64,000 bases of DNA, from the NCBI GenBank assembly GCA_000995965.1, contig LBYD01000002.1, forward strand, positions 135,889-199,888. Reading direction: 5' to 3'. Both the position numbers and the translations under genes were made by a program. Of the stretch, positions 2,629 through 52,271 are shown one piece after another. The first letter of the stretch is position 1; each line of letters starts with the position of its first letter. The stretch is from Candidatus Moranbacteria bacterium GW2011_GWC2_40_12. Lineage in GTDB: Bacteria; Patescibacteriota; Minisyncoccia; Moranbacterales; UBA11712. The notes under the pieces were generated by a model. That model saw nothing but the letters and a program-made list of their open reading frames with translations. It did not search any database and had not been told where the DNA came from.

Positions 2629-3086
2629 ACTTTATTTATCATCATAAGCGCCGCCTCAGCCGCTTCGCGGCCTTTGTTTTCTTTACCGCGGGAGCGGACT
2701 TGGGCTTGCTTCAGATTGTTGCACGTTAGCACTCCAAATCCGATCGGGATATCGAATTTTAGCATCACGTCCATGATGCCTCGCGAGGATTCATTGCAAA
2801 TATAATAATAGTGATCGGTCTGGCCTTTGATGACACAGCCGATAGCGACAAGCGCGTCGTATTTTTTTGTTTGCGCCAGCCTTTGGCAAGCCAGCGGGAT
2901 TTCAAAAGACCCTGGAACCCAAACAGTTTTTATATTTCCCGCCTTAACTTTATTTTCCTTGAGCGTTTCCAGCGCGCCATCAAGCATTGATTTCGTGATA
3001 TTGCTATTGAACTGCGAAACCACAATTCCAATTTTCAATTTTGACCCGTCATTTTTTTTCGAGTGCCCTTTTTTAGCATTTAGCAT
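2625..3086 (-). CDS. ribH: 6,7-dimethyl-8-ribityllumazine synthase
   Basis: 153 aa with KIGIVVSQFN.., GSFEIPLA and VIKGQTDHY motifs typical of RibH. Confidence 0.85.
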   Translation of the reverse strand: MLNAKKGHSKKNDGSKLKIGIVVSQFNSNITKSMLDGALETLKENKVKAGNIKTVWVPGSFEIPLACQRLAQTKKYDALVAIGCVIKGQTDHYYYICNESSRGIMDVMLKFDIPIGFGVLTCNNLKQAQVRSRGKENKGREAAEAALMMINKV

Positions 3087-3675
3087 GTCCGGTATTTTTT
3101 AAAATATTAAAAATATATTTCGCGATTGCATCCGTCTCAATATTCACTTTTGCGCCGACTTTGATTTTTCCGAGATTGGTGTTTTCAAGCGTATAGCTCA
3201 CGAGCGAGACCGTAAACCAGTTTTTCTTTGACTCAACGATTGTGAGGCTGATTCCATCAATGGAAACCGACCCCTTCGGCGCCATAAATTTCATAAATTC
3301 TTTCGGAACTTTTATTTTTATCACTATCGATTCTTTCACTTTTTTTATTTCAATAATTTTACCCACACAATCCACGTGCCCCTGCACAATGTGCCCGTCC
3401 ATGAGATCCCCAACCCGCAAACTTCGCTCAAGATTAACTTCTTTACCTTTTTGAAAATCTCCGACAGTAGTTTTTTTGACTGTTTCCGGCATATATTCGA
3501 CCGTAAAATTACCACGGCTTATTTTATTGACCGTCGAGCAGACACCATTCACTGAAATACTTTCGCCAAGTTTAATATCCCAGCCTCTTGGAATTTTTAT
3601 CTCAACAAAAAGACTTCCCTTTTGCCAAGATATTCTGTCGACTTTCGATAATTTTTTGATTATTCCTGTAAACAT
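3073..3675 (-). CDS. ribE: riboflavin synthase alpha subunit
   Basis: 200 aa starting MFTGII.., with SISVNGVCSTV and GDLMDGHIVQGHVD lumazine-binding repeat motifs. Confidence 0.85.
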   Translation of the reverse strand: MFTGIIKKLSKVDRISWQKGSLFVEIKIPRGWDIKLGESISVNGVCSTVNKISRGNFTVEYMPETVKKTTVGDFQKGKEVNLERSLRVGDLMDGHIVQGHVDCVGKIIEIKKVKESIVIKIKVPKEFMKFMAPKGSVSIDGISLTIVESKKNWFTVSLVSYTLENTNLGKIKVGAKVNIETDAIAKYIFNILKNTGHAKC

Positions 3676-3705
3676 AAGCGACTCGCGAATTTGAGCAAAT
3701 TATAG

Positions 3706-4485
3706 CTAATATAAGCGAACTCTTGGATTTACGATTCGTTTATACTGCAGTTTATTCAACTTGAAATTTATTATTATGCCGAGCTTTAAACCTGTTGCGT
3801 CTAGATATCTTAGCACTTGTTTAACGTCATTGTAATGTATAAAATTCACCCGCTTGAACTCCAGCAAAATTTTATTATCTATAACAAAATCTGCAAAAAA
3901 TTCTCCTATTTCAGAATTATCTTTGGTTTTTACCACCATTTGTCTTTCTTTCTCATAAGGCATTTTGAGCTTTTTTAGTCTTTCCTCAAACAATTTCTGA
4001 TAATGCTTTTCCTGATAAATATTTCCAAGTTCATTGTGCACTTCCATAGCCAAACCGACTATTTTATAACTTAACTCCGGATAAACCAAACCTTTATTCG
4101 CTCCCATTCGCTTTTCATTAGCTCCATATTCGCGAGTTATTCTTTCAATATCTTTTTTTATCTGCCTTTTCAACTCTTCCTCGCTTTTGAATTTCATGAT
4201 GTTTCTAATCTTCTCCCCAATCTCTATTTCAATTTCTTTTCCGTATAAATCCCCCTTGAATCCGATAAGATGCGCTTCGAGCAATTTCCCATCCTGACTC
4301 ACAAAAATCCCAGCCAACCACTCATTCGCTCCGATTCGCTTTCCATTCGCTCCTAATTCGCGAGTTATTACTTTCCCCGCATAAACCCCGTTTTCAATTT
4401 TTTCATGAAGCTTAATATTAGCCGTTGGAAAATCAAGTTTTTTTCCTTTTCCCTTGCCATGAATTACTGTTCCGCATATTTTCAT
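3706..4485 (-). CDS. riboflavin kinase domain fused to GxxExxY-family domain, with repeat-encoded in-frame insertions
   Basis: N-terminal GKGKGKKLDFPTANI..EAHLIGFKGDLYGKEIEIEI resembles the RibF kinase domain. C-terminal IVGLAMEVHNELGNIYQEKHYQ...LGIIINFK resembles GxxExxY proteins. Two segments, RELGANGKRIGANEW and REYGANEKRMGANKG, are encoded by copies of the dispersed attcgc repeat. Confidence 0.6.
   Translation of the reverse strand: MKICGTVIHGKGKGKKLDFPTANIKLHEKIENGVYAGKVITRELGANGKRIGANEWLAGIFVSQDGKLLEAHLIGFKGDLYGKEIEIEIGEKIRNIMKFKSEEELKRQIKKDIERITREYGANEKRMGANKGLVYPELSYKIVGLAMEVHNELGNIYQEKHYQKLFEERLKKLKMPYEKERQMVVKTKDNSEIGEFFADFVIDNKILLEFKRVNFIHYNDVKQVLRYLDATGLKLGIIINFKLNKLQYKRIVNPRVRLY
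4096..4138 (-). repeat. attcgc-family repeat copy inside coding sequence (encodes ..TREYGANEKRMGANKG..)
   Basis: Sequence attcgctcccattcgcttttcattagctccatattcgcgagtt; related copies at 4323-4366, 3686-3745, 12881-12960, 13416-13522 and 50706-50810. Confidence 0.7.
4323..4366 (-). repeat. attcgc-family repeat copy inside coding sequence (encodes ..RELGANGKRIGANEW..)
   Basis: Sequence cattcgctccgattcgctttccattcgctcctaattcgcgagtt, in the same orientation as the copy at 4096, ~230 bp away. Confidence 0.7.
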
Positions 4486-5951
4486 GATTTTCTTTTCAAT
4501 ATTTTTACGACGCCGTGATTCGCCCGCACTTCCACCAAATCTCCATCATGCAAAACTTTTGTCGCAATTTTTGTTGCCACAATCCCGGGAATTTTGAGCT
4601 CGCGTGAAACAATCGCCGCGTGGCAAGTCATTCCGCCTTCATCGGTCACAACTGCAGAGGCTTTCCTCAAAGCGACTATGTAATCAGGAGTTGTCATGGT
4701 TGTAACGAGAATATCGCCTTTTTTCATTTTCCCAATTTCTCTGGGACTAAGCACAATTTTTACTCTTCCCGTCACGTTTCCCCGGTTGACAACCAATCCC
4801 CTGAGTTCCTGTATATTTTTTTCCACACTTTTCTTCGCATACCGCTGAAATGTTTTTTGAGCAGCTATTCCCGAAAACAAATGGATCATTTCTTCGCCCG
4901 GATCCGCGTAGACCAAAAATCCTTTCTTTCTTCTCACGATTTCATCTTCGCTTACTGCCCGTCCGCTTACCAAACTTTCCAGATCCCCGACTGTATAAAA
5001 AAATAAGTTGTCGCTCTTTACTCTATACCTTCCGGAAAATTCCTTGAGAAACAAACTTATGACATAATTCGCCTGGAAAATGAATGATTTCCGGAGATCC
5101 TGCCACCAAATGCAAAAAGCCAGTTGTCGGCCTATTGTCAGGATTGTTTTTGGCAGTTTATGTCTTTTTGCTGTTTTTTTCTTATTTTTAATCGTCTCTT
5201 TTTTTATTTTTTCAATTTCCCTTATCTTCTTTCTCGCCCGCTCCGCAGTTATCCCGCCTAAATTTTTCCCGAAGAAAGAAATAGGCAATATTTGAACATG
5301 ATGGTAACTGTTGAGCATCCAAAAATATTTCTTCTGGTGCTCCGCCAGCCTTTCACCTCTTTTTTTATTATCTTTTTCAAGCGCTATTGCCAGCAAATCC
5401 ATACTTTCTTTTTGATAAAAAGAAAGGTCTTCCGGAGCAGTCAAGCTTTCAAGGGCCTGAATAAAATCGCTTTCGTCTCTTATTCTATTTCTCAATTCTT
5501 TCACGAGCAGCTGCTCGCCGCCCCAGCCGGCCATTTCCGGCAGAAGCCCATTTCGCCAAAAATTTCTATTATAAATTGAAATGAATTTTGAAAATAGTTT
5601 TCTCAAATCAACGTCCGCCAACGAAGAAAGATTCGTTTTTTCGATTTTATTTTTGATCAGGATAAAATTCTTCAAATCTTTTTGCCATTTCGCATAAGCT
5701 TTTTTGAATCTCGTTTTGCTCAAAACATATTTTTTGAAAATTTTCTCCCCGTCATCGTGCAATTTTTTGTGGTCGCATACAAAAACCAGTTTTCCTTTTT
5801 CATAAAAGATAACGTTGGGAGGCCACCCGGGTTGATAAATCCGGCTGAAAATAAACGTTCCCAAATTCCAAAAATCGGGGAACACCGGCTGGCCATCAGC
5901 CGGTCCCCAATAAAATATTTTTCTTTTTGGATCAATCTTGATCTTGATCAT
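4482..5951 (-). CDS. PEP-utilizing mobile domain protein, paralog 3
   Basis: 489 aa with C-terminal swivel-His domain (GGMTCHAAIVSRELKIPGIVATKIATKVLHDGDLVEVRANHGVVKILKRK). Confidence 0.75.
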   Translation of the reverse strand: MIKIKIDPKRKIFYWGPADGQPVFPDFWNLGTFIFSRIYQPGWPPNVIFYEKGKLVFVCDHKKLHDDGEKIFKKYVLSKTRFKKAYAKWQKDLKNFILIKNKIEKTNLSSLADVDLRKLFSKFISIYNRNFWRNGLLPEMAGWGGEQLLVKELRNRIRDESDFIQALESLTAPEDLSFYQKESMDLLAIALEKDNKKRGERLAEHQKKYFWMLNSYHHVQILPISFFGKNLGGITAERARKKIREIEKIKKETIKNKKKTAKRHKLPKTILTIGRQLAFCIWWQDLRKSFIFQANYVISLFLKEFSGRYRVKSDNLFFYTVGDLESLVSGRAVSEDEIVRRKKGFLVYADPGEEMIHLFSGIAAQKTFQRYAKKSVEKNIQELRGLVVNRGNVTGRVKIVLSPREIGKMKKGDILVTTMTTPDYIVALRKASAVVTDEGGMTCHAAIVSRELKIPGIVATKIATKVLHDGDLVEVRANHGVVKILKRKS

Positions 5952-7426
5952 TATAATTTTCTTATCAGCCCCTTTTCCGCATCGACTTCAATGGTATCTC
6001 CGTCTTTTATGACGGACAAAATTCCTTGCACGCCGACAATGCAGGGAGTCTTGAGCTCCCGCGAAACAATGGCCGCGTGGCAGGTGATGCCTCCTTCTTG
6101 CGAAATAATCGCTCCCGCGATTTTCAAAACGGGGAGAAATTCGGGGCGGGGGTTGGGAGCCACCAATATATCGCCCTTTTTCATTTTGTGAAAATCATTT
6201 TGGTCCCGGATGATTTTCACTTTTCCCTCGACAATCCCCGCGTAAGCCGGCATGCCACTAAGCCCCGAATATTTGCCAACTTGCTCTTTGAGAAATACAT
6301 TGAGTCTTTCGGCCTGTTTTCCCTTCATGGCCGAAAATTTTTCGAGGCCGGTTTTGAAATATAGCCAGCCTTTCGGCCGCGATTCAATTTCGCGTATTCT
6401 TTGTTTGTTCAGCTTGAACAAGTTTTTCATTTCCCAGTGGAACATATATTCCACTGCGTTTATCTCAAGTCCGGACTTGCGGCTGAATTCTTCCGCAAAT
6501 TTTCGCAAGGTGTTCCCGGCCATCTGGTTGAAACTTTTTCGCGCGTCACGGAAATTCCCCAGTATCGCCAGAAAATTTATCACGTTAATAAATTCTTTTG
6601 AAAGCCTATATTTTTTCGCTATTCTTTTTTTTCTGCTTTCTAAATTGGCAAGCGCTCTTCGCATTTCTTTTTCCTCCCGAAGTTTCTTTTTATCTTGAAT
6701 AATTTCTTTGATTTTTTTGAGGAAATGCCGCTGGTCCAGATAATGGACTTTCGCAAAATCATTCTGCAGCCAATAATAGTTTGCGACGATACTTCGCAAA
6801 TATTTGTTTCTCCCGTCTTCTGAAATATTTTTCTTCAACATTATCTCCGCCAGTTTCAGCAGGTCCATCCTTTCCTTTTGCAAAAATGACGGTCCCGGGG
6901 GAGTTAGCAAGATTTCCAAATCACTCCCATCAATATTTTTCTTTTCCCTGTCCATGGCCTTCCGCAATATTTCTTCTCCAAAATAGTCGAAGGAATCAAG
7001 AAAAATGGCTTCATACCAAACAGCAAGGTAGATATCGGTAAATTTTTTAAATAAAGCTAAAAGTTCGGCGTCTGAATATTTCGACAAATCTTGGCCAAAT
7101 GTTTTTTTGTTTAAGTTCAAATATGGGTTGACGTATTTTTTGTGCCAGTTGTTGATTAGCTTGGAAATAAATTTTTTATCCCTCTTTTGTCTTTCATAAT
7201 AATATCTTCCTCCGCTCTCCAAAGAGCGTTTAGAGATATAATCGTCCATAAAATCATTTTTTATATAGACAAAAAGTTCGTATTTCGGCGGAATCTTTTT
7301 CCCGAATATTTTCATGAGAGAACATGCGTGCCACGGATAGGAAATATAAAGCGGCTTCACCGCCGCTCCCTGCTGGTACCATTCGATTTTCCCGATTTTT
7401 TCCCTTATTTCTTTGCAGTTCATCAA
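5951..7426 (-). CDS. PEP-utilizing mobile domain protein, paralog 4
   Basis: 491 aa with C-terminus GGITCHAAIVSRELKTPCIVG..DGDTIEVDAEKGLI. Confidence 0.75.
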   Translation of the reverse strand: MMNCKEIREKIGKIEWYQQGAAVKPLYISYPWHACSLMKIFGKKIPPKYELFVYIKNDFMDDYISKRSLESGGRYYYERQKRDKKFISKLINNWHKKYVNPYLNLNKKTFGQDLSKYSDAELLALFKKFTDIYLAVWYEAIFLDSFDYFGEEILRKAMDREKKNIDGSDLEILLTPPGPSFLQKERMDLLKLAEIMLKKNISEDGRNKYLRSIVANYYWLQNDFAKVHYLDQRHFLKKIKEIIQDKKKLREEKEMRRALANLESRKKRIAKKYRLSKEFINVINFLAILGNFRDARKSFNQMAGNTLRKFAEEFSRKSGLEINAVEYMFHWEMKNLFKLNKQRIREIESRPKGWLYFKTGLEKFSAMKGKQAERLNVFLKEQVGKYSGLSGMPAYAGIVEGKVKIIRDQNDFHKMKKGDILVAPNPRPEFLPVLKIAGAIISQEGGITCHAAIVSRELKTPCIVGVQGILSVIKDGDTIEVDAEKGLIRKL

Positions 7427-7427
7427 T

Positions 7428-8861
7428 TTATAGCTTGATTATTTTTGCCACGCCCTTTGTCGCATCAACTTCAACAATGTCATTGTCCTCAAATATTTTC
7501 GTGGCAATTTTCGTCCCCACGATACACGGGATTTTCAATTCCCGCGAAACAATTGCGGCATGGCAAGTGAGCCCGCCCTCATCCGTAATAATTGCAGCCG
7601 CTTTTTTCATTACCGCGATATAGTCTGGGGTAGTCATGCCGCAGATCAACACATCTCTCCTTTTAATCTTCCTCAATGCGTCTTCTAGCCCATTACAGAC
7701 TTTCGCTGTTCCGGTCACTTTGCCCGGCATAGCTCCGAAGCCTTTAACTTCATTGCCGTTCTCAATATTTTCTTTAATCTCTGATCTGAATTTTTTTACA
7801 GCAGCCTTCCCTCTAAAAACCTTTAGTCCGTTGCCGTCTATAAGCGTAAGCGTTGCCTGTTTGCCTTTGATAATTTCTTTACGGTTAAACTTGCCTTTTT
7901 GCAGCGCTTCAAAAACCTCGTTGCCCCAAAGCCAGTTCAGGTCCTCTTCATCAATTTTGAGACGCCTGGACATTTCCAGCATAATCAAATAAAGGGCATG
8001 GTTTGTCTTTACCTGCATCTCTTTTCGCGCCTCGTGATAGTATGCATATTTATCTAAAAATTCGAGCCAAATCGAAATTTTTTCCAGCTTATATTTTTTT
8101 GTTAATCTTGACCGATTGTTTTTTATCTCCCGTTGCTGCGCTCTGATTTCTTTCAATTTTTTCTTTGCCCTGGCTTTATCTGAAATCCTTTTTATTCGAG
8201 AAATAAAATATTTTTCCGAGTGCGGCGTCAAATTTTCCCAGCCAAGACCCGTCCACCAATACCGCTTATATAGCCCCGTATAATCTTTTTCGGTTATATT
8301 TTTTTTCAGGGCAAGCTTCAGCACGGCTTCTTCCTCTTGGTTCAGATACGTTTTGTATGCGGGAATCGATATTGCCTCGAAGAATTTCTGGAATTCTTCT
8401 TCGTTTATTGGTTTTTTCAGATTCTCTTTTATTTTATTTCGAAGAAAATCTTCAAAGTGTACATCAAACGCATCGATGTCCACGTTTAGGAGCCCATGCG
8501 CGGGTCCCGCTTCTCTAATCAGAAAAATATAAAGATTGATTAATTCACCATTTGAACAATCGCGAAGATTGTACTCATAAATCTTTTCAGCCGCAATTAT
8601 TGCTTTTTTAATAAGTTTGTCGAACCGATGAAAGTGTTTTTTTCTTCCAAGGGAAGTGGCGCAAAGCTTCATCGTATGGCGGCCCAAGACGCGGATTCGT
8701 TTTTCTCCCCAAGCGAAGATGAGTTTTGGCCCATGATCAAAGAAAATAGACTCTACGACAGGCGCGCCGGTGAGTTTAGCCGAATACTCATGATGCCCCA
8801 GTAGCGCAAGCGTAAACCAATTTGGATAAATTGTTCCCCTTGAATAAGTTAACCAATCCAT
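7428..8861 (-). CDS. PEP-utilizing mobile domain protein, paralog 5
   Basis: 477 aa with C-terminus GGLTCHAAIVSRELKIPCIVGTKIATKIFEDNDIVEVDATKGVAKIIKL. Confidence 0.75.
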   Translation of the reverse strand: MDWLTYSRGTIYPNWFTLALLGHHEYSAKLTGAPVVESIFFDHGPKLIFAWGEKRIRVLGRHTMKLCATSLGRKKHFHRFDKLIKKAIIAAEKIYEYNLRDCSNGELINLYIFLIREAGPAHGLLNVDIDAFDVHFEDFLRNKIKENLKKPINEEEFQKFFEAISIPAYKTYLNQEEEAVLKLALKKNITEKDYTGLYKRYWWTGLGWENLTPHSEKYFISRIKRISDKARAKKKLKEIRAQQREIKNNRSRLTKKYKLEKISIWLEFLDKYAYYHEARKEMQVKTNHALYLIMLEMSRRLKIDEEDLNWLWGNEVFEALQKGKFNRKEIIKGKQATLTLIDGNGLKVFRGKAAVKKFRSEIKENIENGNEVKGFGAMPGKVTGTAKVCNGLEDALRKIKRRDVLICGMTTPDYIAVMKKAAAIITDEGGLTCHAAIVSRELKIPCIVGTKIATKIFEDNDIVEVDATKGVAKIIKL

Positions 8862-8959
8862 TTGAAGGAATAATCAAGCTGAATTACTAGCCAAATGTTA
8901 GCTTAAAAAGGCCTTTTTTACAAGAGATTTCGCAATTGTTTCACGGAAACACACCGAAC

Positions 8960-8988
8960 TTGACATTTAGAGAAAAAGAGGCTATAAT
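8960..8988 (+). promoter_or_regulatory. consensus sigma70-type promoter (TTGACA-17-TATAAT) driving the high-GC cassette gene
   Basis: ttgaca at 8960-8965, a 17-nt spacer, then tataat at 8983-8988; a perfect match to both hexamers. Confidence 0.6.
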
Positions 8989-9131
8989 TATACGTTATTG
9001 TTCTTTGAAAGCGGGTTTCACGCATTTGCCTGCCGATTAGTTAACTCCAATGTGGTCGCAAAAAAATAATCTTGCGTTTACTTTGAGTTAACTAACGGCA
9101 CCTGGTGCCGATCATTTTGAAGAAGGATGAC

Positions 9132-9779
9132 ATGAACGACAAACCCCAAGTAACGATTGAAACGGTTGAGGTTAATATCCACGGCATGCGCCATGGGGAC
9201 AAGGACGGCGATACCCTGACTGAAAAAGGCAAGGAACAAGTCGCGAAAAGTGCGCGGAAAAACCTGGCCGGTATTTCGATTGACGCCTACTATTCTTCCC
9301 TGCGTACTCGCGCCTTCGAGACGGCTGATGTCGTCTATGAAACCATCGGCTCGAAGACCGAGGTCGAAATCGCCCATCGCCGCGCCGCTTTCGATTTCTG
9401 TGGCGCACCCGGCATCACCAACACCAAGGCTGTAACGGAGGGCGAAAAAGCCTACCGCGAAGAGCACGGCATCGAGAAAGAAACGGTAGGCACCTGGAGG
9501 CAAGGCGCTCCTGCCTGGACGGATTTCCTCCGCGGCCGCGTTTACCAGGGACTCAAAGATGTGGCCACCGAGCAGGCCTTCGACGCCAAGGGCAACGCGG
9601 TGAAAAACGTTTTTATCGGTTCCCACAGCCCGACCATCGAGTTGGCCGTGGCCGACCCCAATTTTCCCCGGCTCCGGGAAGCGGACATGGTGCTCTACCG
9701 TTTCATCGTCGTGAAGACGAACGGCGAAATTACCTCTGTGAACCTGGAAACCGTCGACTACATCGACCGCGGGTTCTAA
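9132..9779 (+). CDS. histidine phosphatase (phosphoglycerate-mutase-like) family protein, in a high-GC horizontally acquired cassette
   Basis: IHGMRHGDKDGDTLTEKGKEQ fits the RHG...LTE.G..Q signature, and FIGSHSPTIE the C-terminal SH motif. GC is ~58% against ~38-40% in the flanks. ATG 9132 has an aagga RBS. The ORF track starts at GTG 9105, which lies inside a cggcacc/ggtgccg palindrome. Confidence 0.6.
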   Translation: MNDKPQVTIETVEVNIHGMRHGDKDGDTLTEKGKEQVAKSARKNLAGISIDAYYSSLRTRAFETADVVYETIGSKTEVEIAHRRAAFDFCGAPGITNTKAVTEGEKAYREEHGIEKETVGTWRQGAPAWTDFLRGRVYQGLKDVATEQAFDAKGNAVKNVFIGSHSPTIELAVADPNFPRLREADMVLYRFIVVKTNGEITSVNLETVDYIDRGF

Positions 9780-9822
9780 ACTCGCACCAACCAGGCCGGC
9801 TAAACCAAAGCCCGTGCCTGCG

Positions 9823-9859
9823 AAAGCCCAGTCTTCGGATTGGGCTTTCTTCTTTTTTG
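9823..9859 (+). terminator. rho-independent terminator (possibly bidirectional)
   Basis: Stem aaagcccagtc, loop ttcg, stem gattgggcttt, followed by cttcttttttg; lies between convergent genes. Confidence 0.7.
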
Positions 9860-10054
9860 AAAAAAAATCGGCACACATCTGAAATATGCCGACATTATTC
9901 ATTCTATTTTTGGTCATTAATTATTGTTTTTTTCTTAATTTTTCCATCCCTTCTTCCGCGATTTTGCGAAATTCGTCATAAAATAAATTTTCCATCATCT
10001 TTTCCAGAAGATCGAGCAGTTTTTTTCGGTTTTTGTAAACAAATGCCATATTAG

Positions 10055-10522
10055 TTATTCTCTCTTCCGTATATCTGCCAAAGCGTCCATGTCATGAAAA
10101 AATTTCTTATTCGGCGTGTCATAAACTTTTTTCCATTCAACGTCCTTGAGCTGATCAAAATCGTTAATGGTGATTATATCCACAACCTCTTTCGTTTTTT
10201 TCTTGTCATATCCCACTGAATCCAAAATGTCTTTGGCTATTTTAGCGCCGGCCAGCATATGCACCAGTTTCGCGTTGACGATTTTTTTTGGTCCAGTCAC
10301 ATAGGCAAAATGTTCCGGAAGAAGCAACGCATGACCAATGTCGTGCATCATTGCAACTGGAATGATCACGTCTTTGTCATGCTTTATATTTCCCTGGTAG
10401 CTTAATACTAATTTTACAGTTTCTTTCGCATGCACGTCATCACCCGGACGGCCTTTTTTCAAGATCGGCAAAGCCTTTTTCCAGATTTTTTCGTATTTCT
10501 CCGGAAGGTTCTCGATTTTCAT
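10055..10522 (-). CDS. HD-domain phosphohydrolase
   Basis: 155 aa with HAKETVKL and MMHDIGHALL, an H..HD metal-binding signature. Confidence 0.65.
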   Translation of the reverse strand: MKIENLPEKYEKIWKKALPILKKGRPGDDVHAKETVKLVLSYQGNIKHDKDVIIPVAMMHDIGHALLLPEHFAYVTGPKKIVNAKLVHMLAGAKIAKDILDSVGYDKKKTKEVVDIITINDFDQLKDVEWKKVYDTPNKKFFHDMDALADIRKRE

Positions 10523-10526
10523 AAAA

Positions 10527-12074
10527 TTACGCTTTCCTTAAAATTTTAACGATCCCCCTATTGGCATCAACCTCGACTAGATCGCCGTCTTTCAAAATTT
10601 TCGTGGCAATTTTTGTTCCGACGATGCAGGGTTTCTTGAGTTCCCGAGAAACAATCGCCGCGTGCGAGATAATTCCTCCTGTGTCCGTCACGATCGCTGC
10701 CGCTCTTTTGAGACCCATAATCAAATCCGGATTAGTTGCCGAGGAAACCAATATATCCCCGTCTTTTACTTTGGCTGCATCTTTAGCGACAAGAACTATT
10801 TTCACCATTCCTTTAGCTTTTCCTTTATACGCCATCATCCCTTTGAGTTCACCAGTTTTCTCCTGGTCGAACTCTTTGTCGCTTTCTATTTTCAGTTTAG
10901 TAATAATTTCTTTTGCCTCCTTGCCTTCAAAAACTTTTATTCCCCCATTTATTGCGATATAACAACAGCGCCTTGTCCTTTCTTTCGCAATCTTTCGGTA
11001 TTTTTTTGCTTTCCTGTTATTAATCGCATCCTTGATATCTTCGAGCACTAAATATTTAATCTCCTTGGATGTCATCACTAATCTTCTCGCGATCTCATTA
11101 ATTATTTTATCCATGGCGACATATGATTTCTGATAAATTCCTTTTCGGAAATCCTTGATGAACATCATTTCCGCTGAAACTTGAAACGCATACTTCAAAT
11201 TTTCTGGCAGTTTTATTTTTTTTTGAATCCTCTGTTTCTCTTTCCTAATATTTTCATAATGATTCAGTATTATATTTTTCTGCTTCTTGGCGTCCCCTGT
11301 TTTCAGATTTTCGGCAAGCGCCCCAAGAAGATATTCCGCAGTCATGGCCGGTCCGGCATAGGCATATGTCAGCCAACCAAAATCTTTGAGATGTTTTTGA
11401 AATAGCTTATCAACCGACGGATACTTTTCGCTAAAATTTTTGTAATTGTTCTTTTCAATGTCCTGAATGACATTTTTTGATTTTTTGTCGGCCATTATTT
11501 TCAGGAGTAAATCCAACCTGGCAATTTCTTCTTCCTGAACTTCACTTTTCTTTTCGCTGGAGCTAAGAACCGTATAGTAATCACTAAACTTTTTCTCCTG
11601 CCCAAGTTTTTCAAGATACTTTCTAAACTCTGCTATGAGATAATCGCTCAAATAGGCTTTCTCCATCCCATCCATTGACGAAGGGATCCAACCCCAAACT
11701 CTCAAGGTCCGCAGTTTCCCCATATAATCAAGATACAATTGTAATAATTGCTTATCGCTTAATTTTTTTACGTTGGCTATTCTGTCAATGCGTTTGCAGA
11801 ATTTCATCAGTTCATCGCTATACTGATAAATGTTCTTGATAGATTTTCGGAAGAATGCTTTATCATCGATTAACTTTTTCAAAAAACCTTCTCCGACAGC
11901 ATTTGCCGATTCGCGATCATAATACATATGAATTCGGTCCTTTTCAAAATAGACGACAGCTTTTTTCACCACTGCCCTGGAAATTTTTCCTATATCTTTG
12001 GTAATCGTGAGGTCAGAAATATACCATGGGTAGATATACATATTGTCCCGCTCAAAAAGAAGTTTGAGAGCCAT
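10527..12074 (-). CDS. PEP-utilizing mobile domain protein, paralog 6
   Basis: 515 aa with C-terminus GGIISHAAIVSRELKKPCIVGTKIATKILKDGDLVEVDANRGIVKILRKA. Confidence 0.75.
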   Translation of the reverse strand: MALKLLFERDNMYIYPWYISDLTITKDIGKISRAVVKKAVVYFEKDRIHMYYDRESANAVGEGFLKKLIDDKAFFRKSIKNIYQYSDELMKFCKRIDRIANVKKLSDKQLLQLYLDYMGKLRTLRVWGWIPSSMDGMEKAYLSDYLIAEFRKYLEKLGQEKKFSDYYTVLSSSEKKSEVQEEEIARLDLLLKIMADKKSKNVIQDIEKNNYKNFSEKYPSVDKLFQKHLKDFGWLTYAYAGPAMTAEYLLGALAENLKTGDAKKQKNIILNHYENIRKEKQRIQKKIKLPENLKYAFQVSAEMMFIKDFRKGIYQKSYVAMDKIINEIARRLVMTSKEIKYLVLEDIKDAINNRKAKKYRKIAKERTRRCCYIAINGGIKVFEGKEAKEIITKLKIESDKEFDQEKTGELKGMMAYKGKAKGMVKIVLVAKDAAKVKDGDILVSSATNPDLIMGLKRAAAIVTDTGGIISHAAIVSRELKKPCIVGTKIATKILKDGDLVEVDANRGIVKILRKA

Positions 12075-12162
12075 AAATTTTGCTTTTATTTGAAATATTT
12101 CCTTAATCCCCCTACTATATAGAGTAAAGGCAAATAGCTAATAAATCAATCATCTACATCTT

Positions 12163-12880: not shown

Positions 12881-12960
12881 AACTCGCGAATGCGGAGCTA
12901 ATGCAATGCGAATAAGTGCGAATTCGCTCAAGTTAGCTTTAATTCGCTCAAATTAGCGAG
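12881..12960. repeat. attcgc-family palindromic repeat element (intergenic yebC-ruvC)
   Basis: aactcgcgaatgcggagctaatgcaatgcgaataagtgcgaattcgctcaagttagctttaattcgctcaaattagcgag, made of left-arm gcgaat units and right-arm attcgc units. Confidence 0.65.
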
Positions 12961-13466
12961 TGCGTATTATTGGAATCGACCCGGGAACGGCCACGACAGG
13001 CTGGGCCGTCGTTGAGGAAGTGAAAAAAAATCCGCGGCTCATTGCTTGCGGGTGCATCAACACGAGCAAATTTAACTCCGACGCGGAGCGGCTGGTTGAA
13101 ATTGGGCGTGATATCGGTTCGCTCATCAAAAAATACAAGCCCGATGAAGCAGCCATTGAGGATCTTTTCTTTTTCAAAAATTTGAAAACCGCCATCACTG
13201 TCGCCCAAGCGCGCGGAGTAATTCTCTACGAAATAAAAAAAAACGGGGTGTCCCTTTCAAATTATACTCCGCTTCAAGTGAAACAAGCCCTCACCGGATA
13301 CGGCCGGGCTGAAAAAAAACAAATTCAGATCATGGTAAAAAATATTTTGAAGCTCCGCTCGGCTCCAAAACCGGACGACGCCGCCGACGCGGTCGCGATT
13401 GCGATATGTCATCTTAACTCGCGAATGAGAGAGCGAATTAATCGCGAATCGGAGCGAACTCGATAA
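12960..13466 (+). CDS. ruvC: crossover junction endodeoxyribonuclease RuvC (GTG start; C-terminal tail encoded by a repeat element)
   Basis: RIIGIDPGTATTGWAVVE.., AIEDLFF.KN and ADAADAVAIAICH motifs. The last ~16 aa (SRMRERINRESERTR) are read from the attcgc repeat at 13416-13522. Confidence 0.85.
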   Translation: MRIIGIDPGTATTGWAVVEEVKKNPRLIACGCINTSKFNSDAERLVEIGRDIGSLIKKYKPDEAAIEDLFFFKNLKTAITVAQARGVILYEIKKNGVSLSNYTPLQVKQALTGYGRAEKKQIQIMVKNILKLRSAPKPDDAADAVAIAICHLNSRMRERINRESERTR

Positions 13467-13522
13467 CAAGACACACTGTTATTCGCTCGTATTCGTTTCA
13501 CATTTGCTCAAATTCGCGAGTT
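13416..13522. repeat. attcgc-family palindromic repeat element (full-length, with terminal inverted repeats)
   Basis: aactcgcgaatgagagagcgaattaatcgcgaatcggagcgaactcg...ttattcgctcgtattcgtttcacatttgctcaaattcgcgagtt; termini aactcgcgaat and attcgcgagtt. Confidence 0.7.
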
Positions 13523-13594
13523 TTTTGTTGACAAAACCGCCCAAAAGCGGTATTTTTTAATCAGTATTTTACCTAAATTTAAGCCAAAAACCAT

Positions 13595-49143: not shown

Positions 49144-49866
49144 TTAAATGCGGTTTATCTCCAATTTCTCCGCTTCTATTTTTTCCGCTGACTCGGTCAC
49201 TTTCGGATTATAAGCGTTGTAGAAAAGCTCGACTAGCTCTTCCGTCTCAAGCGGAGCGATTTTTATTCCGGTTCCGGAAAGTCCGGCGACAATGTGGTCC
49301 ACTCTCTGCCAAAGCTGGCTCCTATAATTCTCAAACTCCATTTCTCGTTCGATTTTGGCTTGCTTTGGATTAAGGGCTATTTTCAGCTTTTCCAAAAAAC
49401 CGTCTTTTTTTCCTTCTGTCAGGGCGAAGGGAACGACAATATAGAAATTTTTGGCCATAATATTCGAGGTGTTGACCAGGTTTTTGATAAAAGCGTGATA
49501 CTCGCTGATTTGGAAACGGAGCAGGTCATTGGGCTGGGTATGCTCTTTCTCCGAGAGCAGTTCGAGATAGGGATTGATATCCAGCTTCCGGGTGCTGATG
49601 AGTATCTGAAGCGGAAAATCGAGAGAATTCAAGAAGCCCTGGTAGGCGGCGACAATCGCCTCCTGCTCCTGCGTGGCTTTCAGGTCAAAATTTATGGAAG
49701 ATACCATCAAGACCGCTCGGAGCGAATTATTCTTGAGAATAACCACTCCGTCTTTGATTTCAGAAATATCAACAAAATCCTGGGTTGATTTCCCGAGAGC
49801 ATCGTTTTTGGTTAAATTTTTGGAATGTAAGCTTTCCATGATAGAAATGTAAAATGTAAATCTCAA
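49144..49866 (-). CDS. hypothetical protein (T4SS-locus associated)
   Basis: 240 aa with no recognisable motif; sits between the virB4-like and prgI-like genes. Confidence 0.4.
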   Translation of the reverse strand: MRFTFYISIMESLHSKNLTKNDALGKSTQDFVDISEIKDGVVILKNNSLRAVLMVSSINFDLKATQEQEAIVAAYQGFLNSLDFPLQILISTRKLDINPYLELLSEKEHTQPNDLLRFQISEYHAFIKNLVNTSNIMAKNFYIVVPFALTEGKKDGFLEKLKIALNPKQAKIEREMEFENYRSQLWQRVDHIVAGLSGTGIKIAPLETEELVELFYNAYNPKVTESAEKIEAEKLEINRI

Positions 49867-49896
49867 AATGGAAAATGATAGTGTAAATTGTCAAAA

Positions 49897-50265
49897 TCAT
49901 TTTTCCTTTAGCGTTATAATGCCCTTAGCTATAATATTTGATATTTCAATTAATTCTTGCAGAAGCCACTCTAGTTCTTTTCGGTCGCCTTTTTCAGTGT
50001 CCCGAAGCAGTGTCAACCAAACTTTTGATTCATTCGAAGATTTCAGAGAATGGGTGAAAAAATTAATGAAATCTTTTTTAGAACTCGCCGAGTTTGCTTC
50101 AATATAGTTCGCTAAAATACTTGTCCCGCTTCTCAGAAGCTGTTTTCCCATGACGCCGCATACAGAATCTTTTGGCAGCTTATCTATGAATTTAATAAGT
50201 CTCAAAACCCAATTATATAATCTCTTTTTGAATTCATTTTTAAACTTTGCCTTGTCATTTTGCAT
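49897..50265 (-). CDS. four-helix-bundle protein (23S rRNA intervening-sequence protein family)
   Basis: 122 aa with LRSGTSILANYIEA and KDFINFFTHSLKSSNESKVWL; flanked by AT-rich caaaatg elements. Confidence 0.65.
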   Translation of the reverse strand: MQNDKAKFKNEFKKRLYNWVLRLIKFIDKLPKDSVCGVMGKQLLRSGTSILANYIEANSASSKKDFINFFTHSLKSSNESKVWLTLLRDTEKGDRKELEWLLQELIEISNIIAKGIITLKEK

Positions 50266-50282
50266 TTTTATTTTTCAATTTT

Positions 50283-50699
50283 TCATTTCTTCGTGTCCAG
50301 CACCCACGCGATCCTTTTCAGTTGGCTTTGGCTGGGGATGCGTTTTATCTGCGCCGCGGGAGCGGCCTGTTTTTTCCTGGCCTCGTGGAGAGATTTGGAA
50401 AAGGTCGATTCTTTCGCGTTATACATTCTTCTCCAGACATATTTTTTTGGGCTGGCGAAATACTGGACCATGTATCCGAAAAAAGATAAAAAAGTAATCC
50501 CTTGCGGCCGGTAAAAAGTAAAAGTCCCAAAAATAATAATTACGAAAATGGCAGCGAAAAGGAAAACTTTGCGATCGACGAGGCTATAGAGAATGATGAG
50601 GCAACCAGCCATTCCGCCCATCCACAAAAGCTGCTTCGAGGTGAGCCCGAAAGCAATTTTGTCTTCAATGTCTATGAATTGGGGGACATTTACATGCAT
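50283..50699 (-). CDS. PrgI-like (VirB3 analogue) small membrane protein
   Basis: VPQFIDIEDKIAFGLTSKQLLWMGG plus two TM helices, placed ahead of virB4. Confidence 0.5.
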   Translation of the reverse strand: MHVNVPQFIDIEDKIAFGLTSKQLLWMGGMAGCLIILYSLVDRKVFLFAAIFVIIIFGTFTFYRPQGITFLSFFGYMVQYFASPKKYVWRRMYNAKESTFSKSLHEARKKQAAPAAQIKRIPSQSQLKRIAWVLDTKK

Positions 50700-50705
50700 A
50701 ATATT

Positions 50706-50810
50706 GACTCACGAATGAAGAGCGAATTAGAAACGAATTAGAGCGAATATTTTTCCATGCTAGCAAGTTCGTTCACATTCGCTTTCCATTCGTTCTTTAA
50801 TTCGCGAGTT
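50706..50810. repeat. attcgc-family palindromic repeat element
   Basis: gactcacgaatgaagagcgaattagaaacgaattagagcgaat...attcgctttccattcgttctttaattcgcgagtt. Confidence 0.65.
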
Positions 50811-50813
50811 ATT

Positions 50814-52271
50814 TTATTCATCTCCGCTCAAATCAACGATATTCCCCTCAACCCTTGGTTCCGGCTTTTCTTCCCTTTGAGGTCCATAATGGGGATAAAA
50901 GATATTTTTTGGACGGCTGGGAGCGTAGGGCTTTAGAGGCTCGGTAGGAGCTAAAGCTTGATTTTGAGGAACCCCGACGTTACGTCGGGGGGGAGAAGTC
51001 GAACCTTGATTAGCAGGTTGAACCTTGGACGATACAGGAGGAACCGAACCTTGATTATCCCTTGAAATCCCCTCCGAAAATCCCTTGAGTTTCACGGGCG
51101 CTTCGCCAGCCACTTCGTGGCTTTCCGGCGCCGGAAAGGGATTTACAAACTGTATCGCTTTGCGAGAATTGGGAATATTTTTTTGAATTGGCCGGGGCAA
51201 AGTTGGCGGTTTTGCTGGAGCAGCGGACCTGTCCGCCGCATTTCCCGCAGGGCGGGATACGGGTGGATAAGGCCTGATGAAGCTGTTTTCAACTGGTTTA
51301 AGGGGAGATGTTGGCCTTGGCACAACTTTCGGGTATGCCCTAATGAATGATTCTTGCGCATGACTTTGGCTTGGGATCGAAGTTCTGCGTTCTGCGTTCT
51401 GCGTTCCTAGATTCTCAAACACCACCTCATTGTTCTCCGTGTCAATCGGAAGCGGCGTGTTTTCGTCAAAGGACTTCAGTATTATACCCAATTTATCCCG
51501 TTCTGACGAGGACAAGTTCTTCGCGTTTTCCGACCGGAAAAGATAATTTGTCCTTTGTATTGAATCGTGAGCCCCTTGCCCGAGAATGGAAGTATAATCA
51601 TAAAGCCAGTTTTTGATCGAAGGCCGGACGGGACGGTCGAAACTTTTGATTTTCAACGGCGACGAGGTAATTCCCTGCTCGCCGATTTTGGGATATTGCT
51701 GGATAGCTTGTTTGATTGTGTATTTTTCCAACTTTTTCGTAGAGGTGGCAGCTTTTTTTCCGAGTGCCGGAAGCATTTCTGCTTTTATTTCTTGCAATGA
51801 TTGGGAAAGATACATCGGAAATTTCATGATATATTCAACTGCTGTGTCATCCAAGTCCACAATCGGTTCGATCAGGAAATAGTCGTAAAGGCGGAAAATC
51901 CGCATAAGCCTGATTTGATCTTTTTCGTTCAATCTTTGAATCTCCGGATTGTTCATTGAATATTCAAGAAAAGTATTTGGCTCCCGGGGAGTCCTCCGTT
52001 GCTTGTCCAGGTATCTCTTGAGCCAAACGTTCACCGGCATTCCTCCAATGTTTTGAGTATTTTTCTTCAAATAGAAATTCAGAAGCCTGATCAAAGATTC
52101 TCTCGCGGAATAATCAACACTGATGAATTTATTCATAACTTCCCACTCCAAATATGTCGGGTCTTCGACTTCAAGAGTCTCCAAAAGATGTCCTTGAAGC
52201 AACAGGCCGCACTCCTGATCGGAAAGTCTCGAAAAATTAGCTAAAGTTTTTTCCATCTTTTCATTGGGCAT
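50814..52271 (-). CDS. hypothetical protein with proline-rich low-complexity C-terminal half
   Basis: 485 aa. C-terminus PRPTSPLKPV..PPVSRPAGN..APAKPPTLPRP. Contains a tgcgttc x3 repeat at 51386-51406. Confidence 0.45.
   Translation of the reverse strand: MPNEKMEKTLANFSRLSDQECGLLLQGHLLETLEVEDPTYLEWEVMNKFISVDYSARESLIRLLNFYLKKNTQNIGGMPVNVWLKRYLDKQRRTPREPNTFLEYSMNNPEIQRLNEKDQIRLMRIFRLYDYFLIEPIVDLDDTAVEYIMKFPMYLSQSLQEIKAEMLPALGKKAATSTKKLEKYTIKQAIQQYPKIGEQGITSSPLKIKSFDRPVRPSIKNWLYDYTSILGQGAHDSIQRTNYLFRSENAKNLSSSERDKLGIILKSFDENTPLPIDTENNEVVFENLGTQNAERRTSIPSQSHAQESFIRAYPKVVPRPTSPLKPVENSFIRPYPPVSRPAGNAADRSAAPAKPPTLPRPIQKNIPNSRKAIQFVNPFPAPESHEVAGEAPVKLKGFSEGISRDNQGSVPPVSSKVQPANQGSTSPPRRNVGVPQNQALAPTEPLKPYAPSRPKNIFYPHYGPQREEKPEPRVEGNIVDLSGDE

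Follow-up and report, generated by a model that had tools for sequence, protein, structure and literature searches.

Why should a gene for riboflavin kinase (RFK) run without interruption into a nuclease domain, and why should two copies of one dispersed repeat be translated within it? The question is raised by a continuous open reading frame (ORF) of 259 aa at 3706..4485, minus strand, of the 64-kb stretch of DNA from Candidatus Moranbacteria bacterium GW2011_GWC2_40_12, a member of the Candidate Phyla Radiation, analysed here (64,000 nt, hereafter the window), which the ORF listing, Pfam and NCBIfam resolve into a riboflavin kinase, a repeat-encoded linker and a GxxExxY nuclease. Taken as a whole, the best explanation is probably that a standalone RFK gene was colonised by a single family of DNA elements, a homing-like nuclease cassette; we hold the anatomical and evolutionary part of this explanation with considerable confidence, and the homing mechanism, deduced from the arrangement of the sequences, is offered tentatively. 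The element is a cassette of ~460 bp in which the gene for a ~125-aa GxxExxY nuclease (PD-(D/E)xK, Cas4/RecB-like) lies between two inverted arms. Each arm has three to four heptamers, of the GCGAAT type in the window and CACGAAT in the majority of phyla, with a phase of about one helical turn, and the start and stop codons of the nuclease gene are inside the arms. A complete cassette occupies exactly the junction of RFK and ribE, where its stop-free left arm would let RFK be translated through the arm into the nuclease, and a solitary arm is also present in a surface beta-hairpin of RFK. The RFK–nuclease ORF exemplifies a more general arrangement, in which inverted arrays of phased heptamers enclose a nuclease gene.

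The RFK domain (aa 1-117; 4135..4485, minus strand) was delimited by PF01687, an ortholog alignment and AlphaFold, the Flavokinase family PF01687 spanning aa 2-117 of the ORF (96.1 bits against a cut-off of 19.6, E 2e-27), and in an alignment of 28 sequences, the window's included, residues G10, G14, P20, T21, N23, G33, E70, F76, L80, Y81, R94, F99, I109, and D112 are invariant. We take P20-T21-(A22)-N23 to be the PTAN motif and E70 to be the catalytic residue. The profile of the bifunctional RibF protein, TIGR00083, reached 90 bits against a cut-off of 184 and matched model positions 170-284 only, and this search revealed no FMN adenylyltransferase domain at the N-terminus, so the domain is a standalone kinase lacking the FAD-synthetase half. 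Its orthologs are likewise standalone kinases of 109-133 aa, directly followed by ribE and then ribH; in the window, the downstream neighbour is ribE (riboflavin synthase; 3073..3675, minus strand), as placed by the ORF listing and by locus comparison. The two halves of the ORF were modelled separately in AlphaFold, and the RFK domain obtained a confidence (pLDDT) of ~90.

The other half (3730..4077, minus strand) was recognised by Pfam, NCBIfam and alignment. PDDEXK_3 (PF13366) covers aa 137-251 of the ORF (91.6 bits against a cut-off of 22, E 6e-26), and the GxxExxY profile TIGR04256 is matched over its full length (positions 1-116 of 116; 94 bits against a cut-off of 35); with the Flavokinase match along the same ORF, these results bear out the fusion of RFK to a GxxExxY domain that a preliminary description of this DNA had proposed. 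Numbered from M127, an in-frame methionine of the ORF, residues E33, D73, and E83-x-K85 are intact, and among 67 GxxExxY sequences, again counting that of the window, G28, E33, D73, E83, and K85 never vary and Y36 is conserved in at least 90%. The model of the domain (pLDDT 91.8) has as its closest folds in the PDB those of Cas4 SSO0001, lambda exonuclease, RecE, and MGME1 (E ~4e-4, TM up to 0.59), and the domain is accordingly predicted to adopt a PD-(D/E)xK fold of the Cas4/RecB-like kind. A sequence search of the PDB returned no solved structure related to GxxExxY, and a survey of the superfamily gives the function of GxxExxY/PDDEXK_3 as unknown (PMC3424549). Searches with the nuclease in the defence-system collection PADLOC and the phage collection PHROGs were uninformative, each giving a single match, sub-threshold in the former (E 0.08) and marginal, to a family of unknown function, in the latter (E 0.009).

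The repeats within the ORF form a direct repeat of 56 nt (4086-4141 and 4314-4369, 84% identical), the copies being spaced by 228 nt, that is, 76 codons, so that both share one reading frame, and the 46-nt core pattern has exactly two matches in the 64 kb, both in this ORF, where none would be expected (100 shuffles). The in-frame pair reported in the preliminary description therefore stands. Translation of 4324-4369 gives TRELGANGKRIGANEW (aa 41-56) and that of 4096-4141 gives TREYGANEKRMGANKG (aa 117-132); because the gene lies on the minus strand, it is the copy with the higher coordinates that sits inside the kinase, the other one forming the linker to the GxxExxY domain, as had been described. 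Repeat search and ortholog alignment define the former as a solitary arm of four GCGAAT-type units (4324..4365, minus strand, within the repeat block 4314-4369), read as TRELGANGKRIGAN at the tip of a beta-hairpin of RFK. That it is an insertion within the kinase fold was upheld by the alignment, since the window protein has 16 residues at a site where standalone orthologs of 109-112 aa have six (GVYAGxV-6 aa-YKAGIFV), and in the AlphaFold model it extends a beta-hairpin (strands 33-44 and 50-62, pLDDT 81-90); the second arm is modelled as a continuation of the C-terminal RFK helix followed by a low-confidence linker. The arm-encoded segment is present in the window protein and in P0002-P0006, with a six-unit version in P0005 and P0006, and recognisably the same loop arm occurs in the DNA of L001, L002, L086, and L006. 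Against L006, the solitary arm is 96% identical in nucleotides and the flanking RFK sequence 77%. P0040 has the C-terminal cassette and no loop insert, which makes the loop arm and the cassette independent events. What the kinase has acquired is, in short, a lone arm, at a hairpin tip that tolerates insertions. Unrelated inserts of 35-50 aa (e.g., WEIDFNSIPPPLGHLSSSS...) occupy the same tip in the RFK orthologs P0025 and P0028, and on this observation the loop is a general insertion hotspot.

At the C-terminal side of the kinase, the repeat does not stand alone. Identity steps against L006 and the proportion of synonymous differences (pS) delimit a whole cassette, arm–nuclease ORF–arm, of 457 bp at 3681..4137 (minus strand), and along the coding strand RFK is followed by the left arm (4137 to 4096), the nuclease ORF, the right arm (3720 to 3681), a gap of five bases, and the ATG of ribE. 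The left terminal arm (4096..4137, minus strand, in the repeat block 4086-4141), identified by repeat search and locus comparison, has four units and is read in the frame of RFK as the linker TREYGANEKRMGAN; an in-frame ATG in its last unit (4105..4107, minus strand), which encodes M127, corresponds to the codon at which the standalone GxxExxY genes of relatives usually begin, judging by their N-termini. The right terminal arm, found by inverted-repeat search (3681..3720, minus strand), also has four units, is inverted with respect to the left one, and holds the stop codon of the ORF (3706-3708); its coding strand terminates in ...ATTCGCGAGT, leaving 5 nt between the arm and the ribE ATG. The arms of the window are built of three to four units of ~11 nt (10-11 bp phasing), each closing with GCGAAT or GCTAAT; the unit farthest out is AACTCGCGAAT here and TTAGCCACGAAT in several phyla. 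With an inverted arm beyond the nuclease domain, the GxxExxY ORF fills the loop position of a palindrome of this family. Close GxxExxY relatives begin with MGAN, MGTN, or MRTN, that is, at an ATG inside an arm, and many of them end in tails (RISSY, AIRSD, NISSN) that fit the codons of the other arm. The repeat at the fusion point is thus the left terminal arm of the GxxExxY gene's own cassette.

The window also has palindromes of the same family that contain no ORF, scattered at 12881-12957, 13417-13522, and 50707-50813, and together with the arm at 3681-3720 they confirm that the repeat is a dispersed one. The first, with 4+3 units, fills the spacer between yebC and ruvC; the second lies at the 3' end of ruvC, the left arm encoding the last ~15 residues of RuvC; the third, also found by repeat search, lies between the 3' end of a 485-aa ORF (50814..52271, minus strand) and the next downstream gene (50283..50699, minus strand). 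On folding, the palindromes at 13417-13522 and 50707-50813 each give a long hairpin with imperfect pairing (z -5.9 and -7.3, respectively), and a search of the 64 kb returned no Rfam family. The yebC-ruvC spacer, which holds the ORF-less palindrome in the window and in L006, is exactly filled by a full GxxExxY cassette in L007. The RuvC tail SRMRERINRESERTR derives from the left arm of the second palindrome (13417-13466; ruvC 12960..13466, plus strand), and RuvC of L007 ends differently; the tail is a second case, within the window, of an arm read as protein. At 13412-13530, the strong hairpin is directly followed by TTTTTT, and ORF-less palindromes may double as terminators.

Comparison of the RFK/ribE junction among relatives shows how the fusion arose. 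In L001, RFK and ribE overlap by stop and start codon, and no arm and no nuclease is present; L002, which also lacks the nuclease ORF, has 15 nt between the two genes, containing two ATTCG motifs that may be what is left of an arm. In L004/L005 and L086-L093, arm, nuclease and arm lie at the junction unfused, RFK stopping inside the arm in another frame (ATA CTC GCC AAT AAG AGC TAA) and the nuclease starting at an ATG within the arm as a separate gene, so that the separate GxxExxY gene sought in relatives does exist at the same site (L004, L086). In the window, L006, and L003, the register is ATA ACT CGC GAA..., the arm is stop-free, and RFK reads on into the nuclease; the equivalent of M127 has been lost in L006 (CGG ATT) and L003 (CGA ATA). 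Fusion followed because the cassette was inserted where the RFK stop and the ribE start overlap and its left arm is stop-free in the RFK frame, and a single nucleotide of arm register (ATAACTCGC vs ATACTCGC) decides between fused and separate genes. On the minus strand of the L006 locus (3718..4014), a further open frame of 98 codons runs antisense to the RFK region and to both arms, which shows the arms to be stop-free in several frames and in both orientations. The ICSRE* tails of RFK orthologs were considered as arm-encoded and rejected, being the overlap with the ribE start codon.

That same one-nucleotide difference between fused and unfused relatives is what a sequencing or assembly frameshift, producing a false fusion, would leave behind, and a frameshift separating the two halves had been anticipated in the preliminary description. 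The continuous ORF is present, however, in identical sequence in the ENA contig P0001, as 263 aa in the GenBank metagenome-assembled genome L006 of Moraniibacteriota (~82% nucleotide identity to the window), and as 248 aa in the Logan contig L003, and for that reason we do not regard it as an assembly error; with one frame kept in four independent assemblies (counting the window) despite 12-30% nucleotide divergence, this explanation is almost certainly wrong. The preliminary description had suggested that a mobile or palindromic repeat may have mediated the fusion. On such a model, an autonomous palindromic repeat, comparable to the Rickettsia palindromic elements (RPE), was inserted twice in RFK, and one copy of it fused the kinase to a pre-existing GxxExxY neighbour. 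The ORF-less palindromes of the window and the solitary RFK arm, which has no nuclease attached, would suit such a repeat. But the arm at the fusion point has its inverted partner at 3681-3720, beyond the nuclease ORF, the GxxExxY genes of many phyla carry arms that hold their start and stop codons, and the RFK/ribE overlap of L001 is without arm or nuclease, L002 also being without the nuclease ORF. We therefore consider an independent repeat very unlikely to have mediated the fusion.

The cassette has also had a history of its own. Between the window and L006, pS is 0.47-0.62 in RFK, 0.56 in ribE, 0.70 in ribH, and 0.55 in yebC, against 0.067 in the nuclease ORF; the cassette arms are 94-96% identical in nucleotides and conserved at synonymous sites, and the identity profile rises from ~70-80% to 93-100% at ~4145 and falls again at ~3680, positions that coincide with the outer arm ends. 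At the level of these sequences, the comparison shows a cassette history separate from, and much younger than, that of its flanks.

Are such arms peculiar to this lineage? GxxExxY loci were drawn from species-representative genomes of many phyla, and flanking inverted repeats scoring at least 30 were present at 57 of 83 loci, shuffled sequences never scoring above 29. CGAAT clusters from -60 to +20 of the domain start and ATTCG from -20 to +40 of the domain end, the spacing of the units is 9-11 nt (mode 10), and the consensus is CAC(G/T)AAT; in 564 kb, 67 of the 86 arrays of at least three units lay no more than 130 nt from the end of a GxxExxY gene, compared with one in shuffled sequence. The variant of the unit tracks the GxxExxY protein tree: CACGAAT in Bacteroidota, Acidobacteriota, and Planctomycetota, TACGAA(T/A) or AACGAAT in sub-clades of the Candidate Phyla Radiation (CPR), GCGAAT in Moraniibacteriota, and CAC(A/G)GATT, CGCAGATT, or ACGCYGACT in another GxxExxY clade. 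The same arms surround a GxxExxY gene in a RefSeq replicon of Treponema, where they are unannotated. Sixty-two of 72 GxxExxY genes are co-directional with both neighbours, at a median distance from domain to neighbour of ~71 nt, and in relatives of the window cassettes occur between various housekeeping genes, two of them as close as 5 kb. A scan of metagenome DNA with ACTCGCGAATNNNGAGC (14 specified bases) was of little use, as it returned 119 stretches and none of the 80 examined had an array or a GxxExxY gene, which makes them chance matches, and a protein search with the concatenated arm-encoded peptides gave no matches.

Since the arms are inverted, they could act as RNA, pairing in the operon transcript to form a stem that is cut (e.g., by RNase III), with the nuclease mRNA insulated or released, in which case the unit would be a processing module rather than mobile DNA. 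The long hairpins of the ORF-less copies, the strong bias toward the sense orientation within operons, and the bracketed layout that recurs in four-helix-bundle genes (of a Pfam family that takes its name from the intervening sequences, IVS, of 23S rRNA) all accord with this proposal. Pairing as the main constraint on the arms was nevertheless rejected by a test of G.U bias: among arm-arm mismatches, G.U does not exceed A.C (78 vs 79), and most are transversions (343). Conservation, moreover, resides in phased units rather than in pairing, as at ten syntenic loci of Flavobacteriaceae in which the right arm keeps its three ATT(A/C)GTG units and the remaining spacer is unalignable. Partnerless single arms persist inside coding sequence, no Rfam family was matched in the window, and why the cassette is younger than its flanks would be left unexplained by RNA processing, which we thus consider quite unlikely. 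On sequence grounds, phasing by one helical turn and inverted symmetry seem to fit recognition of duplex DNA by a protein better than selection for pairing.

The in-frame state found in RFK recurs in other proteins. A profile search with PF13366 and TIGR04256 matched 30,158 cluster representatives (clusters at 50% identity), with many two-domain tandems and internal insertions, and Pfam detected in-frame GxxExxY domains, with low-complexity linkers around them, within GatB, asparagine synthase, RecG, enolase, and a glycosyltransferase. Entire domains with linkers encoded by the arms, and ORF-less palindromes too, are read in frame in essential proteins of P0201, L054, and L011 (GatB), L059 and L060 (LepA), P0290 (enolase), P0295 (RecG), and P0288 (AsnB). 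Among 81 genome loci, N-terminal extensions of more than 60 in-frame codons occur in 11 and C-terminal ones of more than 50 codons in five, and more than 90 in-frame codons are present on both sides at four (L011 and L054 in GatB, L059 and L060 in LepA); at two more GatB loci, L012 and L010, the domain is in frame and cut by contig ends. All the loci with in-frame extended domains belong to CPR genomes. Occupancy varies here as well: at GatB site 1, L011 has a full cassette where P0201 and L054 have an ORF-less palindrome, at site 2 the pattern is reversed, and LepA site 1 has a full cassette in L059 and, in L060, an ORF-less palindrome of the same ACGCxGACT units, the LepA gene of L060 carrying three ORF-less arrays and one full cassette in all. 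The embedded copies inspected (P0201, P0290, L059) retain the D...ExK residues, and no self-splicing vehicle was found: in the embedded proteins Pfam finds host domains and PDDEXK_3 only, with no Hint domain, and the Rfam search of the window gave no intron ribozyme. Many of the top profile matches (P0159-P0308) are proteins of ~260-275 aa with two tandem GxxExxY domains, which suggests adjacent cassettes read through as one ORF.

These embeddings bear on whether the fusion is adaptive, a bifunctional enzyme in which kinase and nuclease serve a joint function and the GAN-rich peptides were selected as linkers. Three diverged genomes keep the fusion, two of them having lost the internal ATG, and both catalytic cores are intact, as would be expected of such an enzyme. 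Yet relatives have at the same site separate or overlapping genes, or no nuclease, the nuclease is joined elsewhere to unrelated hosts (GatB, LepA, enolase, RecG, AsnB), and the conservation of the arms at synonymous sites indicates a constraint on the DNA and not on the peptide, all of which makes an adaptive fusion highly improbable.

How the cassette would spread is a separate matter. We propose that the arrays are phased binding sites on double-stranded DNA for a multimer of the nuclease, that the ORF would spread and be renewed by nuclease-stimulated gene conversion between array-bearing sites, the arms serving as homology, and that stop-free arms and the sense orientation within operons would make the insertions tolerable to the host. 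More broadly, and again tentatively, GxxExxY genes might be the coding core of pan-bacterial selfish cassettes whose nuclease recognises its own 10-bp-phased heptamer arrays and homes into ORF-less ones; being open to read-through in arms and ORF alike, the cassettes would colonise operon junctions and, in CPR bacteria, the interior of essential proteins, and the four-helix-bundle ‘IVS’ proteins, bracketed by arrays of other units, would be a sister class. The movement could also be that of a cut-and-paste transposon or of miniature inverted-repeat transposable elements (MITEs), with the arms as terminal inverted repeats, excision by the nuclease or by a transposase encoded elsewhere, and the palindromes as non-autonomous derivatives. 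Terminal inverted repeats with a conserved outermost unit, ORF-less derivatives exceeding full copies in the window, and cassettes at many different sites are features in favour of a transposon. No consistent target-site duplication was found, though, the same sites of host proteins recur across genomes, which homing fits better than random transposition, and GxxExxY is almost absent from plasmids (5 of 72,556 records). The sole ORF inside the unit encodes a 125-aa PD-(D/E)xK protein and not a recognised transposase, and we know of no precedent for such a protein as sole transposase. Transposition of this type is, on balance, unlikely.

Several observations weigh against the homing-like cassette itself and have to be set beside the evidence above. 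That GxxExxY would bind or cut its own arrays is deduced from sequence; the co-variation of unit and protein clade would be expected from simple co-inheritance too; and at 30 well-defined element ends no consistent target-site duplication and no conserved cut site were found, a TA dinucleotide occurring at some Moraniibacteriota ends only. The window has only one copy with an ORF, and either palindromes may have gained the ORF or full cassettes may have lost it. The low divergence of the cassette rests on a single genome pair, window and L006, the contrast with L003 being weaker (pS 0.40 in the cassette vs 0.63). In Flavobacteriaceae and Acidobacteriota, GxxExxY occurs at a syntenic site and has diverged about as much as its flanks, a pattern that looks like long-term vertical residence and not active mobility, and on which many GxxExxY copies are long-term residents. 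Finally, M127, or a TTG further on, could be the start of a separate nuclease instead of the 259-aa product. Even so, a selfish, homing-like nuclease cassette is the most likely reading, and transposition, RNA processing, or host domestication is possible for some or all copies.

Several known systems share part of this layout. RPEs, like the arms described here, are dispersed palindromic repeats that are read in frame within ORFs and fall at surface positions of proteins that are normal in other respects, but they come with no gene of their own. These and other small repeats inserted in frame into protein genes have been reviewed (PMC3184786). The cassette arm belongs to a nuclease gene; the arms are also arrays of phased heptamers, not one long palindrome, and a host protein can have the entire cassette, with its nuclease, translated within it. 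In REPIN/RAYT systems, REP doublets are accompanied by a REP-associated tyrosine (HUH/Y1) transposase, and the likeness lies in a gene between inverted copies of a short repeat that is also dispersed as ORF-less, hairpin-forming doublets. It is an analogy of layout only, as the gene flanked here is a PF13366 PD-(D/E)xK nuclease and not HUH/Y1 (Y1_Tnp), the repeats are 10-bp-phased arrays, and the GxxExxY gene occurs in multiple copies that lie within operons and at times within proteins. Eukaryotic Foldback-type transposons have terminal inverted repeats of short tandem sub-repeats with an optional central coding region; the arms are similarly inverted repeats made of short sub-repeats, but kingdom, size, and protein are different and no relationship is implied. 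With MITEs and other transposons bounded by terminal inverted repeats, those repeats are what the cassette has in common.

PD-(D/E)xK homing endonucleases exist, I-Ssp6803I being one. The cassette recalls homing endonuclease genes and inteins as a selfish-looking nuclease ORF recurring at the same positions of housekeeping genes, in occupied and unoccupied states (RFK|ribE, yebC|ruvC, GatB sites 1 and 2, LepA site 1) and with a history decoupled from the flanks. Unlike inteins and introns, it has neither an intron ribozyme nor a Hint splicing domain, and the insert appears to be retained in the host protein; unlike the target of a homing endonuclease gene, its ‘empty’ state is an ORF-less palindrome and not an uninterrupted site. 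The low divergence confined to the cassette bears indirectly on cleavage of an unoccupied allele with subsequent gene conversion, as homing would require. Homing endonucleases of CPR rRNA genes have been described, and the same work names the 23S rRNA IVS with a four-helix-bundle ORF (PF05635) (bioRxiv 10.1101/2024.02.27.582315). Those IVS also have a small ORF enclosed by inverted repeats, but the cassette lies in protein-coding operons and not in rRNA, and the G.U test gave no evidence of selection on an RNA stem. In the literature open to search, subscription literature being outside its scope, we found no description of arms bracketing GxxExxY genes (PDDEXK_3, PF13366, TIGR04256).

For PF13366/TIGR04256, a large family listed with unknown function, the phased heptamer arrays offer a concrete, testable candidate substrate, and the family is a possible source of compact sequence-specific nucleases. 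Where housekeeping proteins of CPR bacteria have low-complexity insertions or extra domains, the cassettes are one explanation, and annotators should be warned that RFK-GxxExxY, GatB-GxxExxY, and LepA-GxxExxY ‘fusions’ are cassette insertions. If homing holds, this would be a selfish nuclease element that survives in essential genes by being translated and not by splicing, in contrast to inteins and to RPEs, and if the pan-bacterial generalisation holds, the cassettes embedded in CPR proteins would behave like inteins that never splice.

The window offers two further observations. A four-helix-bundle gene of the 23S rRNA IVS type (49897..50265, minus strand) lies between inverted arrays of AAAATG-like units (49840-50295), and its homologs in L066 and L020 have inverted arrays of other units (scores 36-59, against shuffle maxima of 21-32). 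Around the RFK operon, tandem paralogs of ~350-515 aa with a C-terminal domain of the PEP-utilizers type (...GGxxSHAAIVSRELxxPCIVG...) are encoded at 1573-2628, 4482-7426, and 10527-12074 (minus strand). Three such paralogs also stand in tandem upstream of RFK in L004, an unusual paralog expansion, and in L006 the RFK operon directly abuts yebC, the ~7.7-kb paralog block of the window (4486-12160) being missing or located elsewhere.

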